A stretch of 64,000 bases of DNA from Naegleria gruberi (taxonomy: Eukaryota): NCBI GenBank assembly GCA_000004985.1, contig GG738878.1, one strand, 5' to 3'. Below are positions 6,208 to 28,055 of the stretch, in pieces; the stretch's first letter is position 1; every line of letters starts with the position of its first letter. Below the pieces are notes generated by a model. That model was not told the DNA's origin and did no database searches. It saw only the letters and a program-made list of their open reading frames with translations. Made by a program: the position numbers and the translations under genes.

Positions 6208-6343
6208 GAGTTTTTAATTTTGCTAATTTGTGCGGTTTGATTAATATTTGAGTTATTTTAATATTATTGTAATTTTACACACACAACAATAAAGTTTTAC
6301 AAATGTACAATTTATTTAAAAATCCACAACTTTGAATTGTGTA

Positions 6344-7566
6344 TTAAACTTCAGTCTTGAGGTGAACAATTTCAGGACCAACTTCATCATATTGTTCCCT
6401 TGTAACACACAAATCAAAGAATGAAGACAAGGTAGCTCTAATACTGCCACCAATCCATGCCAATTGATCTCTCCTATCTCCTGCAACAATACGAATATCC
6501 ATTGAAGATGGTGCCTTCTCTGTCATTTCCTTTGTTAATCTCTCTTCAATACCTTCAAATTTTGTTGAACCACCAGCAAGAACTGAATTACGATACAATG
6601 TCTTACGAACGTCGATTGGTGAACGACTAATTGATTCAAACAAGAGTTCATGTATACCAGATGATTCCATACCAATAAGTTGAGGATAGAAGAGAACTTC
6701 TGGTGCACGGAATCTTTCAGAATTGATTGTAATTGCTGTACCATCAGGTAAGTTGTAAACTTGATCCAAAGATGAACTTTCCTCTGCTTTTTCCATTTCT
6801 TCATCATAATCCAATGGAATGTAACAGTGTTTTTCTTTCATTTGTCTAATAATTTCATGTTCGGCTGTTGTGTGGAAATTGTGGTCCTTTTCACTTAACA
6901 TTTTCATTAAATATTCTGTCACATCTCTTCCAGCAATATTCAATCGGAGTACAGCATGAAGCATGACTGTATTTTAATGAAAATCCAAGAAATTATAATC
7001 GAAACAATTATTCGAAACACAAAATCTATCAAAGGACATTATACAAATAAAAACATACCAAGACCATCATACATTGGAACACAATGAGCTGCACCATCAC
7101 CAACATCCAAACAAACACCTGTCAATCTACCAGAAGCCATCAATGACAATGCTCCTTGAATACCCAAATAAAAAGCAGGAACTTCAAACTTTTCCATTAA
7201 AATTTCACAAACTTTCTCACGTTGTACTTTTGGTGTGAAAGGAGCATCTGTTAATAAAAGTGGTTGTTCCTCAGGTGCTAATTTTAATTCATTGTAATAG
7301 GTGTGAGCAATAACAGATTCCCAGTGATCATAATTTTCAATTGTTCCGTGTACCATTGGATAGTCTAATTGCAAAACACCTCTCTTGGATTGAGCAGAAT
7401 GTCCAACATAATGTTCTCGGTTGACTGTACCAACAAGTACTGAAGTATCTTTTGCTTTACCAATCATATTGGAAAATACGGCACTTGGTGATTGATAACC
7501 AGCAACACCAGCTTTGATGAAGCCAGATCCATTATCGATAACTACTGTTGGAAGTTGTGATGCCAT
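6344..7566 (-). CDS. Actin-related protein (Arp1/centractin-like or divergent actin); 2 exons (7566..7059, 6966..6344), 92-nt intron
   Basis: Actin-fold motifs VVIDNGSGFIKAG, LTDAPFTPK, GVCLDVGDGAAHCVPMYDGL | VMLHAVLRLNIAGRD, GGSTKFEGI, WIGGSI. Intron GTATGT...ACAG at 7058..6967 joins track ORFs 7039..7623 and 6344..6964. Spliced length 377 codons. Confidence 0.75.
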
Positions 7567-7756
7567 TTTTTTTGATGGAAACTTTTGACAGGTGTTATTA
7601 TTTAGATGATGAGTGAAATCCATAAATATTAAAACAATGAAGAAATAAAATTGAAAAGATTTTGAGAAAATAAAATCTTAATCAATTCTTCCAATACACA
7701 ATAGTTAAATTAATTATTCAAATAAATTTTAAATTTGAATAATTTATAATAATAAT

Positions 7757-8498
7757 TTAAATATTTACAAATTTAGTATTTCCATGTTCTGTTACAATCT
7801 TAATCAAAGATCCAGATACAGGTTTTTCTCTACATTCAATCCAATCCACAATCTTTTCAGAAACATGATCCAAAGGAGTCCAATTTGAAAAATCAGCATT
7901 TGGCATTGCATTTCTATTAGCTTCAGTATCCAACATTGAAGGAACAATTCCAACAGTTGTTGTTCCTCTAGGAAGTCCACATTGTTCAGGATCTGCAAAG
8001 CTCTTCACCAAATGATGAACAGAACTCTTAGCCACACCATAAGCCAATGTCACTGGAGTTTTCCCTAAAGCTCCTGCAGCTCCAGGCAAAACCAACAAAC
8101 CATCCTCTCTCATATATTTACTAGCACACAACGCACTCAACAAGGACGATTGAACACTCACTTGCCACATCAAATCAACTTGTGAGAGGAGAGTTGGTTC
8201 CTTCAAATCTCCCATCATGAAACCACCTGCAACATTAATCACAGCCTCCAAATTATTATTATTAGCTGGATTTAGAGAGGAGAGAATTCAAGGCTTTCTC
8301 AATGGTTTGTTGACTCAATTCACCCGAATGATTATTTGCGTTTGATGATGATGCTGAAGGTAATACAATGGAATGATCAGCTTCGGAATTTTCCTTCAAA
8401 TCAATGGAAATGGCAATGAAATTCTTCTTTTTTAAAGAACGGATGAGATTTTTTCCGAGAGCACCAAAGCCACCAAAGACTGCTACGTGTTTAGACAT
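7757..8498 (-). CDS. QDPR: Dihydropteridine reductase (QDPR-type short-chain dehydrogenase) with an apparent +1 frame break at 8252-8264
   Basis: N-term VAVFGGFGALG Rossmann motif. Downstream ORF aligns with QDPR (DLMWQVSVQSS, AGALGKTPVTLAYGVAKSSVHHL, DFSNWTPL, SGSLIKIVTEHG). The two track ORFs (8498..8262 and 8251..7757) are separated by 10 nt in a (taa)4 run and differ by a +1 frame shift. Confidence 0.75.
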
Positions 8499-8598: not shown

Positions 8599-10002
8599 AT
8601 GAATCAAGAGTTGGGAGCAGGTCAACAAATCGTCGTTGCCTCTAACAGTAGTAGCACAGTGGTTCATAATGATTCTTCATTGTCGTCATCTTTGATCAGA
8701 ATAAATAATTCCGATGATGATGAACTCGCACCAATCATGACTAACTTTAACCGATCCAATACAACAGCAACAGTTTCATCTAATATAATTTCCCGATCGC
8801 CACCATCAAAGGATGAGGAGATGGCTACTAGTGGTGGTGGTAGTAATTTAAATCAACAACTCCCATTAATATTAAATCATGAAAGTGATATTTTGGGAGA
8901 AAAATCGGTGAAGGCTTTTTCTGGTGTTTGGATGAGAAGGCTTGGAAGTATCTTTTCTTTCATTCCGAGAATATTTAGAAATTTATTGAGAATGTGTGGA
9001 ATTAAAGCGAAATATTTAACATTTTTGGACAAGTTGCCTTCAAGGAATTTGATTATTTCTGTATTGGCAGTTATTGGATTGATATTTATGATTTTAATTG
9101 CTGTACAATCTAACAAACCAAAGGGTTTGATTCCATTGGTTAGAGATGATAATAGACTTGTTGGGTATATTGTAAAAACAAATACCAATCCATCCTTTTA
9201 TATGAGAGTGTTGAATCCTGCTAGAGATACTGGATTTTCAAAGCACATGGTTAGATATGGCAATTGGGAATCAGCAACTGAAGAACTATTCAAAATGTTA
9301 ATTGAGAAATTCCAAAGAGATTCAAAAATAACTGGAAAGAAGTGTCTCATTGTTGATGTTGGTTCTCATTTGGGATTTTATTCAATTTATCCTGCACTGT
9401 TGGGTTGTAAAGTTATCTCGTATGAAATTCAACCAAAAATGGTGGAAGTGATTAAGAGTTCTGCATCTCTAAATGATGTTGACAAATTGGTTTCAGTTAA
9501 AAACTTGGCTGTTTTCAGAGATGCCAGAAAATATATTCAATACTCAACCAAGTACAATGCTGATCTTACAAATGTTGTTACTGCAGATGAGGAAACTGAA
9601 AGTAAGACTCCAGGATCTGTTGAAACCATATCACTCGATGAGGACTACTTCTCGGCAGATATTCATATCAATTTGCTAAAGGTTGATATTTCTAAAAAGT
9701 CAGATGATGTCTTTGCTGGTGGTTTGAGAACACTCTCCTTTATGATTGATCACATTATTACTGAATTGACAGCAGACGATGCTGTGCCCATTCGTTACAT
9801 TTTGAATGCATACTATGATAAGGTTGTTGTTTTAGAAGATAGCTCAGGAATTTCAGGACTCTTTTTCAAATCATCCACACCAAAAATCTTTAGAGGAAGC
9901 GAAGTTTCAGTTGAAGCAATCACTGCATACTTGGCCAAGACTGGTAAGAGAAATGTTTGGTTCTCCAGAAAGAAGAACACAATCCCATACTATGGTAAAT
10001 AA
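8599..10002 (+). CDS. Type-II membrane protein with FkbM-family SAM-dependent methyltransferase domain
   Basis: 467-aa ORF. Single TM (LIISVLAVIGLIFMILIAV). Motif CLIVDVGSHLGFYSIYPALLGCKVISYEIQP typical of Methyltransf_21/FkbM. Confidence 0.55.
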   Translation: MNQELGAGQQIVVASNSSSTVVHNDSSLSSSLIRINNSDDDELAPIMTNFNRSNTTATVSSNIISRSPPSKDEEMATSGGGSNLNQQLPLILNHESDILGEKSVKAFSGVWMRRLGSIFSFIPRIFRNLLRMCGIKAKYLTFLDKLPSRNLIISVLAVIGLIFMILIAVQSNKPKGLIPLVRDDNRLVGYIVKTNTNPSFYMRVLNPARDTGFSKHMVRYGNWESATEELFKMLIEKFQRDSKITGKKCLIVDVGSHLGFYSIYPALLGCKVISYEIQPKMVEVIKSSASLNDVDKLVSVKNLAVFRDARKYIQYSTKYNADLTNVVTADEETESKTPGSVETISLDEDYFSADIHINLLKVDISKKSDDVFAGGLRTLSFMIDHIITELTADDAVPIRYILNAYYDKVVVLEDSSGISGLFFKSSTPKIFRGSEVSVEAITAYLAKTGKRNVWFSRKKNTIPYYGK

Positions 10003-10012
10003 TATTACAAGA

Positions 10013-12554
10013 TTATTTTATAAATACTTTCTTTGACTCTTTCCACATCTCTGACAAATCTTTTCCTCGAATTAGAGAATTACTTGCTCTCAAGTAGAAA
10101 TGATCTTGATGTTCAAATTGACTGGCACTAGTTAAAATACGTTCCTTAAATTGATTTTCCAATTGTGGAGACTCTGGAATAGATATAGTATTTTCAAAAA
10201 AGGAGGTAATGAGATAATTCTGCAGGGAATTGAGGATTGAAAGAATAATTGGAGATTTGAGGTTCTTGGCTATGTGGAAGAAATCTTTCCCAACGCTTGC
10301 ATTCATTTCTTGAAGATTCTTATCGTTAGTGTTGAGAATACCTTGCATGTAAATACTCAAGTTCAACAACTTGGACATGTACTCCAAGAAGAGAACTTCC
10401 AAATCTTGCTCCCCTTCTGATGTGATAACGCTCAAGAAGGTCAAACATTCTGTCAAGTTTCTTGGAATAAAGCATTCCATTTCTGCCATAACATAGTTGG
10501 TATTCAGTGACATGGAGCTGTACTGACTAGTGAGAATGGCAAAGAATTTCGTGTTAAACTTTTCAAATTGATCGACAAGTTTTGCTGATTTCGTAGTGAT
10601 TCCAGAGAGGTAAGTAAGCTTGAGAAAGTTGAACACCAATTTCTTGAACTGTACACTATTGGTTGTACATCCCTCAATCTGTTGATGGATTTCAATGAGC
10701 AACAAGTATCTGGTAAATAGAGCATGTTGTAACTCCAATACACTTTGAATATCAACATTCTCTGATAACTTGTTCACAATTAGATCAAGCATATTCTTAA
10801 TGACGAGTTGATTGTAGGATGAATTCACACTCTTGAATTCGAGGATGGTATTAAAGAAGGAACTCCACAGATTACAAATTATAGTCTGTATGTCATTGGT
10901 GATAATATTGAAATCCTTCTTATTTTGCTTTACACTCTTCTCACTTTCTAATAATAAGATTGGTCTATTATCATCATGTGGGGAGAGCTTGAATAGACAA
11001 TAGTATTTCAAAAAGAGAGACTCTAGGGAAAAATACATGCCGTGGTAGTATGGTTCCATAATTCTATTGAGAATAGAGAGGAGAACCTTTTCTCTAATGA
11101 AAGGCATCAATTGATTCTTACTCTTATTACCATCCATACACTCAACCAAAAAGCTAACGAATTCATCTGATAAAAAGAGACGAAACATTTCGTTAAAGCT
11201 ATCATCTGGACAGTTTTCCTTAATATCATTAGGGAGGTTTGCTTCAGGGAAGATCATGTGTAAAATGTAATTTCTTCTATCAATTTCCTTTCTAGAGAAG
11301 AGGGCTGGGATTACTGGTGTGGTAGTTGCTGCATTGGAGCTGCTGGAGGCAATTATCTGAGAGTTAGACTGCAATAGATTGGTCCTTTCCAAATCTACTA
11401 CTGTTGCAGAGGGAACCTCATTCTTCTTAGAGACCTTTCTTTTCTTTGCTTCCTCCTTACTTTGAGCTTCCTCTTCAGCTGTCTTCATCTTTGGTCCTCT
11501 CTTCTTAGGTTCATAATAAACACATTCATCAGGTATTCCTCTCTTTTTACATTCACCACAAGGCATTCCCTTATCTTTAAAATGGGGTCTGTAAATTTTA
11601 CTGTAATCTCTACAAATACTTACCACTAAATTAGAGTCAATTACAACCTGCCTAATACATTGAAAATACTTACCATTTACGATGTGATTTTCTACAATTT
11701 ATACATGCCATTCTGGCTTGACTTGGATCTGTGGGTGGTTGTTGGGTTTGGGAGTTATTGGATGAAGGGGCTTGTTGGACGGATGAGGAGGCCACTATTA
11801 CTGATTGTGTTGTCTTTACCAACTCTTGGTCAGCAATACAGTGAGAAACCTTAACTGGTGTCGTGGTAGGACTGTTTGTGACAATAATTCCAGTTGTTGT
11901 GGAAGAGGAAGGATTAGATGATGGTTGCATTTCAGGACTTGTCCCAATTGTTACTTGCTGTGGAGTCTTTCTGTATCCAGATATATAGCCAGGAATAAAA
12001 CTATCCATAGGAACAATATCAATACTTGGTTGAATAATGGCTTGATAAAGAGGAGGTGCATATCTTACAATAGTTTGTGGTTGTGCTGACAAGGCTTCCA
12101 TCAAATCATGACCACCATTACTATGAAGAGGTGGTTTTGGTTCCATATTATTACCACGCCACGATTGTGGATGTTGTTGTTGATAGTGATGAATGTGATC
12201 CACCATGACTTTTGAAGATGGTTGTTGTGAAGTCAAATTATGAATGGAAGGAAGACTGAATCCTTGTTGATGTTGATGTGGAGGTGTCTGGGAAGGAATA
12301 AAAGAGGAAGAATTGCTCTTCATAGCAAGAGGCAAACAGGAAGGGTAAATTGATGAACTCGGATTCATCATGATTAAATTATTGTGCTGATGATGATGAT
12401 TATTACCCACATGATGATGGTGACCACTAGAAGCAATATGAGAATTATTTGTGGTATTATTGGTGGAGGAGGAATTGGTTGGTGTGGATGGAGTGGATGG
12501 CGATTGTTGTTGTTGCCCAGGCTCCACTTTCACCATCACAGCTAAAGGTTTCAT
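10013..12554 (-). CDS. Zn(II)2Cys6 binuclear-cluster (GAL4-type) transcription factor, Q/H/S/P-rich N-terminal region; 2 exons (12554..11674, 11600..10013), 73-nt intron
   Basis: Upstream ORF ends ACINCRKSHRKW*. GTAAGT donor at 11673, acceptor ...gattacag at 11601. Splice gives C-x2-C-x6-C-x13-C-x2-C-x8-C (CINCRKSHRKC...CGECKKRGIPDEC). First ATG at 12554. Confidence 0.65.
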
Positions 12555-13392: not shown

Positions 13393-14040
13393 ATGAGCAA
13401 ACGAAACAGACAAGATTTTGAAAATCATCAATTCATTAATTCGGAGGAAATATTCACTAACAATTTTAATAATAATAATATGGAAGAGAAATCAAAAAAA
13501 ATTGTAAAACTGGAACAAGAAATATTTTCAGATGACATTTGTTTTGAAATAATTTCCATGATTGATGATTCATGGTTTATTTTAAATAATTGTACTTTAA
13601 TTTCAAAACAATTCTTTAATGTGATCAAGGAACGTTCAAAACTTGCTATTCAATTTAAAAAAAAATTTACAGAGAAACGAGTTCAATTATTTTTGAAAAC
13701 TCAATTCATGAATAGTATTGTTAATGTTACATTTTCTAGTTGGTTGCTTGATTCTTTTGAAGAAGCCAAATTCATAACTGAAATGAAACAGTTGATATCA
13801 CTTAATATTCGTGGCTATGATTTTGGTGATGAAGAAGCCAAATTGATAAGTGAAATGAAACAATTAACATCACTTGATATTTCTTACAATCAAATTGGTG
13901 ATGAAGGAGCCAAATATCTAAGTGAAATGAAACAGTTGATATCACTTAATATTCGTGGCAATCGAATTGGTGATGAAGGAGTCAAATATATAAGTGAAAT
14001 GAAACAATTAACATCACTTACATATAAGGGATTATATTGA
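13393..14040 (+). CDS. F-box-like plus leucine-rich repeat (ribonuclease-inhibitor type) protein
   Basis: N-term ICFEIISMIDDSWFILNNCTLISKQFF (F-box-like). Repeated FITEMKQLISLNIRGxxIGDEGAKYLSEMKQLTSL units. Confidence 0.5.
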   Translation: MSKRNRQDFENHQFINSEEIFTNNFNNNNMEEKSKKIVKLEQEIFSDDICFEIISMIDDSWFILNNCTLISKQFFNVIKERSKLAIQFKKKFTEKRVQLFLKTQFMNSIVNVTFSSWLLDSFEEAKFITEMKQLISLNIRGYDFGDEEAKLISEMKQLTSLDISYNQIGDEGAKYLSEMKQLISLNIRGNRIGDEGVKYISEMKQLTSLTYKGLY

Positions 14041-26446: not shown

Positions 26447-27709
26447 TTAGTAGGTTCTTCTGTGAATAATTTGTGGTCCATAGTCATTGTAATCAGTTTT
26501 CTTAATCCACATTGAGCTGAATGAAGAAAGTGATGAAAGAACAGATGCACCATACCAAACAGCGTTAGAAGGATCTTTGGTTTCAACAAGACTGACAATT
26601 GTACTGGTTGTTGAAACTTCTTGAACTTCTATTCTCAATCTCTCAGCAAATGAGTTAATGCATGCAGTACCACCACAAACAATAATATTTGAGAACATTT
26701 CCTTCTTTGTATCAAATTCACATTGATTAGCACAATCGTGCAGAATATGTTGAATTCCTGGAATTTCAAATTCTCTTCCTGGGAGATGAACAGATGGATT
26801 AAAGAATATTTCTGTTGGTAAAAATCTTTCCTTTTGGCCAACAGAAACTTTTTTACCATCTGGTAATGTATAATCCTTATAATAGCTCACTTGATTGGCA
26901 GCACTCTTTGCTTTGGATTTCTTCTTGTCTGTTGTTTCGGCTTCTGAAGCTCCATTCAAAAGACTGTCCTCGGTTTTTTGTTTCAATTCTTGTGATAATT
27001 TCATTTGCTTGTGATATTCATAACCAGATGTGTAAACTAGCTTTCTTTTGATTTGTTCAATTACATTGGCATTAAATACAGTATTAAATTCATCAGGAGT
27101 CATGGAAGAAAATTCAGTATTAATCTTTAGAGTTTTTTGTGGTGCATCACCTTCGGAAGTGTCCATACTATTGTTACTATGTAATAATTGTTTTTGGAGA
27201 AGTGTTTTAAGATATTCATTAGCATGTTTTCCTCCTATATTTACAAAATCAGCTGCATGTGGGAAAGCCAATCCTTCATAAATTGGTGTAAATCTAGTTT
27301 GCTCATATCCAACATCGCACACTATACCAGTAATTTTTCCGCAACTATAAAGAGCCAAAAGACCTTGATTAGCAATAAAAAGGCCTGGTATTTCATATTG
27401 TTCAAACATGTGTTGTGTAATTCTTTCCGAATGTAATTTTGGAGCAAGAGTATGTTCAGACATGATGACAGACATATCAGTGGCTGGTCCATCCAACATA
27501 TCACCTTTTAGCATAGCCTTGTTAAATCCGTAACGCCAAACTCTGTCCATGGCATCAAAATTATTGATCAATCCTCTCTTCATTGGTGATTGATCATTAT
27601 AAAAAAAGGCAGGATCTTGAGTTTGATAGATATCAAGTGGAGCATCCTCACCAGACAAACCTATACGTGTCTCGTAGGTACCATTATCAATCACTACCGA
27701 TTTGCTCAT
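26447..27709 (-). CDS. Divergent actin-related protein (nuclear Arp class, Arp6-like)
   Basis: VVIDNGTYETRIG start. Actin-fold core (GIVCDVGYEQTRFTPIYEG, NIIVCGGTACINSF, VWYGASV). Insertion typical of nuclear Arps. Confidence 0.65.
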   Translation of the reverse strand: MSKSVVIDNGTYETRIGLSGEDAPLDIYQTQDPAFFYNDQSPMKRGLINNFDAMDRVWRYGFNKAMLKGDMLDGPATDMSVIMSEHTLAPKLHSERITQHMFEQYEIPGLFIANQGLLALYSCGKITGIVCDVGYEQTRFTPIYEGLAFPHAADFVNIGGKHANEYLKTLLQKQLLHSNNSMDTSEGDAPQKTLKINTEFSSMTPDEFNTVFNANVIEQIKRKLVYTSGYEYHKQMKLSQELKQKTEDSLLNGASEAETTDKKKSKAKSAANQVSYYKDYTLPDGKKVSVGQKERFLPTEIFFNPSVHLPGREFEIPGIQHILHDCANQCEFDTKKEMFSNIIVCGGTACINSFAERLRIEVQEVSTTSTIVSLVETKDPSNAVWYGASVLSSLSSFSSMWIKKTDYNDYGPQIIHRRTY

Positions 27710-27968: not shown

Positions 27969-28055
27969 GCGGGGATGAGTTTGGCTGGTGCTGAATGCAG
28001 CCTTCAAAGCTGTAGCTACTGTTCGGTAGAGAGGATCGATTCCTCCTTTCCCGCG
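27969..28055 (+). tRNA. tRNA-Sec: Selenocysteine tRNA (tRNA-Sec, anticodon UCA), 87 nt, 9/4 acceptor/T-stem fold, long variable arm
   Basis: GCGGGGATGAGTTTGGCTGGTGCTGAATGCAGCCTTCAAAGCTGTAGCTACTGTTCGGTAGAGAGGATCGATTCCTCCTTTCCCGCG. The 9-bp acceptor stem has one U:U mismatch. The anticodon loop cUUCAAa reads UCA. The T-arm is a 4-bp stem plus ATCGATT loop. Near-colinear with human tRNA-Sec as recalled from memory. Confidence 0.8.

Follow-up and report, generated by a model that had tools for sequence, protein, structure and literature searches.

The classical Zn2Cys6 binuclear cluster follows the spacing CX2CX6CX5-12CX2CX6-8C, reportedly as defined by MacPherson et al. in 2006. Zinc clusters outside the fungi, including their expansion in Naegleria, are already known and have been described in print since 2014 at the latest: searches with PF00172 gave 71 proteins in Naegleria gruberi, 24 in Ectocarpus, 7 in Capsaspora, 2 in Fonticula, 1-2 per species in dictyostelids and a single one in each of two diatoms, and whether the clusters are ancient or were laterally transferred was already under discussion (Scazzocchio 2014, PMC5611559). 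The Acanthamoeba genome paper reports 22 zinc-cluster factors in Acanthamoeba and 3 in Dictyostelium. The zinc-cluster gene described here lies on the minus strand of a stretch of 64,000 nucleotides (nt) from N. gruberi contig GG738878.1, which is called the window; all positions are coordinates of this whole stretch unless another contig is named. The gene is modelled with two exons, an ATG at 12554, a TAA stop at 10015..10013 and a product of 822 amino acids (aa).

A preliminary description of the window had presented this gene as a Zn2Cys6 transcription factor outside the fungi. As a genuine non-fungal, PF00172-positive protein it was retained; as a novelty it was not, and the finding is largely ordinary, since the family is already published as abundant in N. 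gruberi. Of remaining value are a probable mis-annotation in RefSeq, a predicted fold link between the C-terminal domain and fungal regulators, and an instructive shift of an intron boundary inside the zinc cluster. A literature search for the locus tag NAEGRDRAFT_50293 found no paper. A probability of roughly three in four is assigned to the reading that NAEGRDRAFT_50293 is a genuine nuclear gene of N. gruberi, encoding an 822-aa zinc-cluster transcription factor with the parts and the splice given below.

The zinc cluster and its intron

Exon 1 (11674..12554, minus strand like all parts of the gene) encodes aa 1-293 and TG, the first two bases of the codon for the third cysteine (Cys3). It is shared by the JGI allelic model P0001 and the RefSeq model P0007; a second in-frame Met, at 12536, is the start chosen by the RefSeq model. 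The exon ends in …TGT ATA AAT TGT AGA AAA TCA CAT CGT AAA TG|GTAAGT, and unspliced read-through past this donor leads to an immediate stop (…HRKW*). When every AG acceptor up to 220 nt from the GTAAGT donor was listed, the open frame was kept by three only, giving introns of 22, 55 and 73 nt. The 73-nt intron (11601..11673, GTAAGT…ATTACAG, phase 2 within the Cys3 codon) has the 3' end …GATTACAG|T, which rebuilds the Cys3 codon as TG|T = TGT and is the sole choice doing so. Exon 2 (10013..11600) supplies the last base of Cys3 and aa 295-822 in one unbroken frame, stop included, and its 3' part is the same in the RefSeq model. Frame, orthologues and splice-site quality give indirect support to the 73-nt splice, which is, as judged from the sequence, the best model for the locus. 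The products of the 22-nt and 55-nt introns match only the C-terminal half of PF00172, and the 55-nt intron has a GTAAG acceptor.

The cluster domain (11519..11708, aa 283-321, interrupted by the intron) reads CINCRKSHRKCKIYRPHFKDKGMPCGECKKRGIPDEC. Its six cysteines are encoded at 11705-11703, 11696-11694, 11675-11674 plus 11600, 11560-11558, 11551-11549 and 11524-11522, and their spacing is 2-6-13-2-8 (CX2CX6CX13CX2CX8C). When the spliced product was run against PF00172 (gathering cutoff 21 bits), it passed, the full protein scoring 27.5 bits and the isolated domain 31.4 bits over profile positions 2-38 of 39; at the sequence level this match is far beyond chance. Listing of the acceptors and the PF00172 search thereby bore out the earlier claim that the Cys6 motif is complete only after removal of a 73-nt GTAAGT intron, and its coordinates, intron and motif were right. 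Orthologues scored 33.3 and 40.2 bits, and a profile of the DNA-binding domain (DBD) from three orthologues matched the solved domains of HAP1/CYP1 (E=1.6e-6), Cep3 (7e-6), Put3, Lac9, Pho7 and Leu3. Run on a database of 5.8 billion proteins, whose word pre-filter is too strict for a query of 57 residues, the DBD profile gave no hit. A motif scan of the window found no further Zn2Cys6 motif outside this gene.

The features shared with the fungal Gal4/Hap1 type are six cysteines in the pattern CX2CX6C…CX2CX6-8C, a basic segment between Cys2 and Cys3, a Pro before Cys4 and a basic KRG after Cys6. Unlike that type, the Naegleria cluster lies 282 residues from the N-terminus and is followed by no evident post-linker coiled coil; its third loop has 13 residues, a His stands in place of the conserved Lys, and Pfam detects no middle homology region.

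Orthologues with the same architecture were found in N. lovaniensis (C9374_001068, named 'Zn(2)-C6 fungal-type domain-containing protein' in UniRef), in N. fowleri and in a metagenomic relative. Identity within this clade is 25-34%, and the alignment of exon 2 with the N. lovaniensis and N. fowleri proteins runs to their very C-terminus. Both of these share the whole architecture and the signature CRKSHRKC, and N. lovaniensis additionally shares the intron site and the synteny, the gene order zinc-cluster gene, convergent 467-aa gene, adh_short and actin being common to both species. All four orthologues keep 'CRKSHRKC' unchanged, and its part 'SHRKC' is seen again in a paralogue of N. lovaniensis (CKESHRKC); judged from this conservation, CRKSHRKC may be a Naegleria-specific DNA-recognition signature.

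Intron positions were compared in the relatives with readable DNA, which are N. lovaniensis and the metagenomic contig L002. Each of the three taxa has the homologous intron at a different place, all three lying within 4 nt: inside Cys3 in N. gruberi (phase 2; window 11587-11675, minus strand), directly after Cys3 in N. lovaniensis (phase 1, …AAG TGT G|GTATGT…TTTACAG|AC, 6829-6907 of contig L001) and directly before Cys3 in L002 (phase 0, …AGA AAG|GTAAGT…TTAATAG|TGT, 997-1038). From N. lovaniensis, N. gruberi thus differs by a donor 2 nt off, and in addition by a Cys3-Cys4 loop that is 8 residues longer and by the absence of a second intron. Contig L002 (ENA ERZ27315067, k141_1511066; 38% G+C) is Naegleria-like and carries, at 517-2607 on the plus strand, a 671-aa orthologue of the same architecture, which has two very short introns of 36 and 39 nt and had been split into two open reading frames (ORFs) by a prokaryote-style caller.

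N. lovaniensis has a second gene with a Zn_clus domain (L001 11231-13114, minus strand) between adh_short and actin, which is intronless and encodes 627 aa with the cluster, CLECKESHRKCSRTLPACSRCIKRGFKCEY, near the C-terminus. The syntenic spot in N. gruberi comprises about 200 bp only (window about 7560-7765), and this difference indicates a lineage-specific gain or loss within the family.

Public gene models and the shifted splice site

The locus is identical to RefSeq XP_002675433.1 (NAEGRDRAFT_50293, UniProt D2VKH2, model P0007), located on a 395-kb scaffold. In that model a 130-nt intron (11575..11704, minus strand; donor GCAT|GTATAA, acceptor TTTTAAAG|AT) is removed, and the resulting protein of 797 aa reads …ARMAY|KGMPCGEC…, with Cys1-3 lost; when this splice was rebuilt from the window, exactly the XP_002675433.1 protein was obtained. 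If this model were right, the product would retain Cys4-6 only and would fall outside the zinc-cluster DNA-binding proteins. In its favour, it is the model that RefSeq/UniProt carry for the main scaffold, and its intron is in frame. However, its product stays below the PF00172 cutoff (13.5 bits versus 21), while P0001, the model of the other allele from JGI (610 aa, 13-kb contig), takes exactly the 73-nt intron and reaches 28.1 bits. The splice sites GTATAA…AAAG are also poor and differ from the ends of the orthologue introns (GTATGT…ACAG, GTGAGT…ACAG and GTAAGT…ATAG), with which GTAAGT…ACAG of the 73-nt model agrees. Finally, the stretch treated as intron in RefSeq encodes RMACINCRKSHRK, which is near-identical to RMSCTHCRKSHRK and RMACVHCRKSHRK of the orthologues, where all six cysteines are kept; because of this protein-level conservation, the stretch is regarded as coding. 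By these comparisons the 130-nt intron is probably an annotation error, and we consider it very unlikely that the RefSeq model is correct. In P0001 the C-terminus is frame-shifted and shortened, apparently by a spurious extra intron near the 3' end (window about 10700-10800, minus strand).

The N. fowleri protein model (P0004) reads MACTHY|KLHPCGEC, without Cys2-3, and looks like a mis-called splice at the same intron. Half of the DBD is dropped by the RefSeq/UniProt model and the N. fowleri model looks wrong likewise; domain-based censuses of Naegleria transcription factors would therefore under-count the family at clusters interrupted by an intron.

Several observations count against the splice and the cluster as modelled. 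An alternative acceptor, TTTACAG|A (11589..11595, minus strand), lies 12 nt downstream of the modelled one and is equal to it by consensus; its use gives an 85-nt intron and joins TG to A, so that a TGA stop follows straight after …CRKSHRK. The 14 nt TAAAATTTACAGAC, which in N. lovaniensis form the 3' end of the intron with the acceptor, are identical in N. gruberi (14/14) and lie there just inside the modelled exon 2, coding for K-I-Y-R. All six cysteines are present and the classical spacing holds, save for the Cys3-Cys4 loop, which with 13 residues is one over the range and compares with 5 in the orthologues (spacing 2-6-5-2-8). Furthermore, aa 291 (11684-11686, minus strand) is a His, the same in all four orthologues, at the position of Gal4 Lys18, where the family has a strongly conserved Lys (Gal4 K18; HAP1 'CRKRKVKC').

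A second alternative is that the ancestral TTTACAG|A is still used in N. gruberi. Removal of an 85-nt intron would then leave a premature TGA in the mRNA, and the gene would be decaying, or would yield only a 293-aa product without DBD or, from an internal start, a protein without Cys1-3. This would fit the identical acceptor region, the restriction of the loop insertion to N. gruberi and the donor that is 2 nt off compared with N. lovaniensis, which looks like a frameshifting deletion. Nevertheless, the downstream frame of 1.59 kb is open in a genome of 33-36% G+C, the orthologue alignment reaches its very end, and the three N. gruberi alleles contain no disabling change; taken from the sequences, these points support a functional gene. 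The third allele (L003) has 0 nt differences in the intron and 1 synonymous nt difference in exon 2, too few for a selection test. Splicing normally picks the first suitable AG, and according to general splicing knowledge the upstream ACAG is closer to the likely branch site. Use of this acceptor is therefore judged improbable, though less so than the RefSeq model, and the 73-nt splice is retained.

The loop insertion consists of 8 codons, KIYRPHFK (11576..11599, minus strand), which occur in the Cys3-Cys4 loop of N. gruberi only and whose first 11 nt (AAAATTTACAG) equal the 3' end of the N. lovaniensis intron. Compared with the relatives, the donor is located 2 nt and the acceptor 12 nt farther upstream, and the ancestral loop DKxxP is recognisable in N. 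gruberi as DKGMP. This arrangement suggests that a 2-nt loss at the donor may have been rescued by a shift of the acceptor, whereby intron sequence would have been exonised as an 8-residue loop; if true, the locus would be a side case of a donor frameshift rescued within a zinc cluster. In Scazzocchio 2014 (PMC5611559), AlcR of Aspergillus nidulans and a Thalassiosira Zn cluster provide precedents for an enlarged Cys3-Cys4 loop. In contrast to these, the N. gruberi extension is an 8-residue, species-specific one, apparently derived from intron-boundary sequence.

The C-terminal helical domain

Beyond the cluster the preliminary description had counted a remainder of ~520 aa. This is to be corrected slightly: about 500 residues follow the cluster, and 282 low-complexity residues precede it (aa 1-282, 11709..12554, minus strand; rich in S/P/Q/T/N/H). 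Directly behind the cluster, aa 322-396 (11294..11518, minus strand) comprise the conserved basic linker EPKKRGPK, a KKRK motif and a poorly conserved, disordered spacer rich in K/S/E/A. This spacer of about 75 residues has many indels, and in the orthologues it contains much Pro; as judged without a formal coiled-coil predictor, it shows no evident coiled coil. The C-terminal all-alpha domain of about 20 helices (aa 397-822, 10016..11293, minus strand) starts at the conserved RKEIDRRNY and includes the conserved block LFLKYxCLFKLSxxDDNRxILLxESEKS.

Neither the C-terminal 438 residues nor the orthologues gave a Pfam match at E≤10, PF04082 (Fungal_trans) and PF11951 (Fungal_trans_2) included. 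An exhaustive search of 1.84 billion representative proteins with a C-terminal profile from three orthologues returned four sequences only, all of the same orthogroup, and no fungal protein. Among the four is P0005/P0006, a metagenomic protein; upstream of it, its contig L002 has coding sequence for the same Zn cluster. The search of this profile against PDB sequences gave noise only, and a literature search found no paper linking the 'middle homology region' with the protists concerned.

For comparison at the fold level, two AlphaFold2 models of the C-terminal domain were built from a 4-sequence alignment, with no zinc cluster, templates or fungal sequences in the input, and were compared with PDB-40 (48,164 chains) in two runs that differed in the target sequence. 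Upc2 and Cep3 are, to our knowledge, the only Zn2Cys6 proteins with solved large non-DBD domains; according to the DBD profile, the only long Zn-cluster chains in the PDB are those of Cep3. Each model is purely alpha-helical and has about 20 helices. Upc2 ranks first in both runs, Cep3 was aligned over 271-287 residues, and all four returned fungal zinc-cluster non-DBD chains (two Upc2, two Cep3) are among the first 28 of 48,164 in one run and among the first 17 in the other.

The likeness could alternatively be a generic resemblance among all-alpha folds or a modelling artefact, in which case Naegleria would have invented the domain itself and joined it to a borrowed zinc finger, as suggested by Scazzocchio (2014). 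The lead in Z over designed helical repeats is small, sequence identity reaches 7-8%, and a Foldseek search of the PDB gave nothing significant (best E 0.86), all of which lowers confidence in the fold assignment; the top Foldseek TM-score, 0.35 for the CBF3 chain 6gyp_B, is a hint only. On the other hand, the joint position of Upc2 and Cep3 at the top of both runs, obtained from models that had seen neither cluster nor fungal sequence, is hard to ascribe to chance as far as predicted structures go. A mere resemblance is therefore held to be possible but on the unlikely side, and homology of the predicted C-terminal domain to the Upc2/Cep3 regulatory domain is thought rather probable. On these models, the Naegleria factor likely shares the whole two-domain design of the fungal zinc-cluster regulators, diverged past sequence recognition. 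The statement that the remainder is unrelated to the fungal middle homology region accordingly holds at the sequence level, where no Pfam match exists, and is probably wrong at the level of the fold.

The resemblance has its limits in function and extent. For Upc2 (S. cerevisiae and C. glabrata; PDB 4n9n, 7vpr), a sterol-sensing protein, about 40% of the Naegleria domain is aligned at the identity given above, and nothing in the Naegleria domain points to a sterol pocket or to any ligand. Cep3 (CBF3 subunit B; PDB 6p7v, 6f07) binds centromeres and belongs to a kinetochore complex of four proteins found in budding yeasts only, and nothing suggests such a role in Naegleria.

Origin, mode of action and neighbouring genes

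That the gene is a fungal contaminant, or reached Naegleria from a fungus very recently, would be suggested by a Pfam family that is overwhelmingly fungal and by the yeast proteins that are the best DBD matches among solved structures. Yet the composition of the window is uniform (30-36% G+C) and its other genes are ordinary eukaryotic ones: RGS, PB1, a kinase, a CitMHS transporter, SBDS, actins and a WD40 protein. The synteny with N. lovaniensis is kept, the intron is shared with the orthologues, and the exhaustive C-terminal search reached no fungal protein. Moreover, the orthologues are only 25-34% identical, and the gene is therefore old in the clade. The possibility of contamination or very recent transfer can practically be dismissed, which agrees with the preliminary description, where contamination had been argued against.

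The boldest proposal is that the full fungal-style architecture, a Zn2Cys6 cluster plus an Upc2/Cep3-type domain, is present in a discoban lineage beyond sequence recognition; as a whole, it is put forward as doubtful. If true, the shared architecture would speak for an origin very far back, close to the eukaryotic root, or for a transfer of the whole gene very long ago, and against recent borrowing piece by piece. It would also suggest that a ligand or partner controls the regulator of this orthogroup, which would then work in the manner of Upc2. If the Upc2/Cep3-like fold holds, the debate on ancient origin versus transfer is sharpened, and a testable hypothesis of dimerisation or ligand control is obtained for an orphan domain in the genus to which the pathogen N. 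fowleri belongs.

By analogy with the fungal factors, the six cysteines would bind two zinc ions and the cluster would enter the major groove at a trinucleotide half-site, like Gal4 and Hap1, with specificity arising from the spacing of the half-sites within a dimer. The recognised triplet may differ from CGG because of the His at the Gal4 Lys18 position in all four orthologues. The helical domain would probably dimerise, as in Cep3, and/or provide signal-dependent control; dimerisation by this domain is likelier because no coiled coil is obvious in the spacer, which is Pro-rich in the orthologues. It may also gate activity on a ligand or partner in an Upc2-like manner. A nuclear-localisation role is presumed for EPKKRGPK/KKRK, and the Q/S/P/H-rich N-terminus may, speculatively, be an activation region.

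The convergent neighbour (8599-10002, plus strand; 467 aa) ends 11 nt from the stop of the zinc-cluster gene; it has a weak TRM5/TYW2-type methyltransferase match only (E=0.005) and 59-67% identity to N. lovaniensis in tblastx. The divergent neighbour (13393-14040, plus strand) encodes a leucine-rich-repeat protein (LRR_6/LRR_8) with the repeats ISEMKQLTSLDIS…GDEGAK, and its ORF seems to run on past a possible intron. An actin-family gene at 6332-7559 (minus strand) is syntenic with the N. lovaniensis actin and is broken in tblastx, which suggests an intron. A more divergent member of the actin family (PF00022, 262 bits) is located at 26447-27709 (minus strand). ARAGORN predicted a selenocysteine tRNA with the anticodon TCA at 27969-28055 (plus strand), just upstream of a 649-aa ORF without Pfam match.

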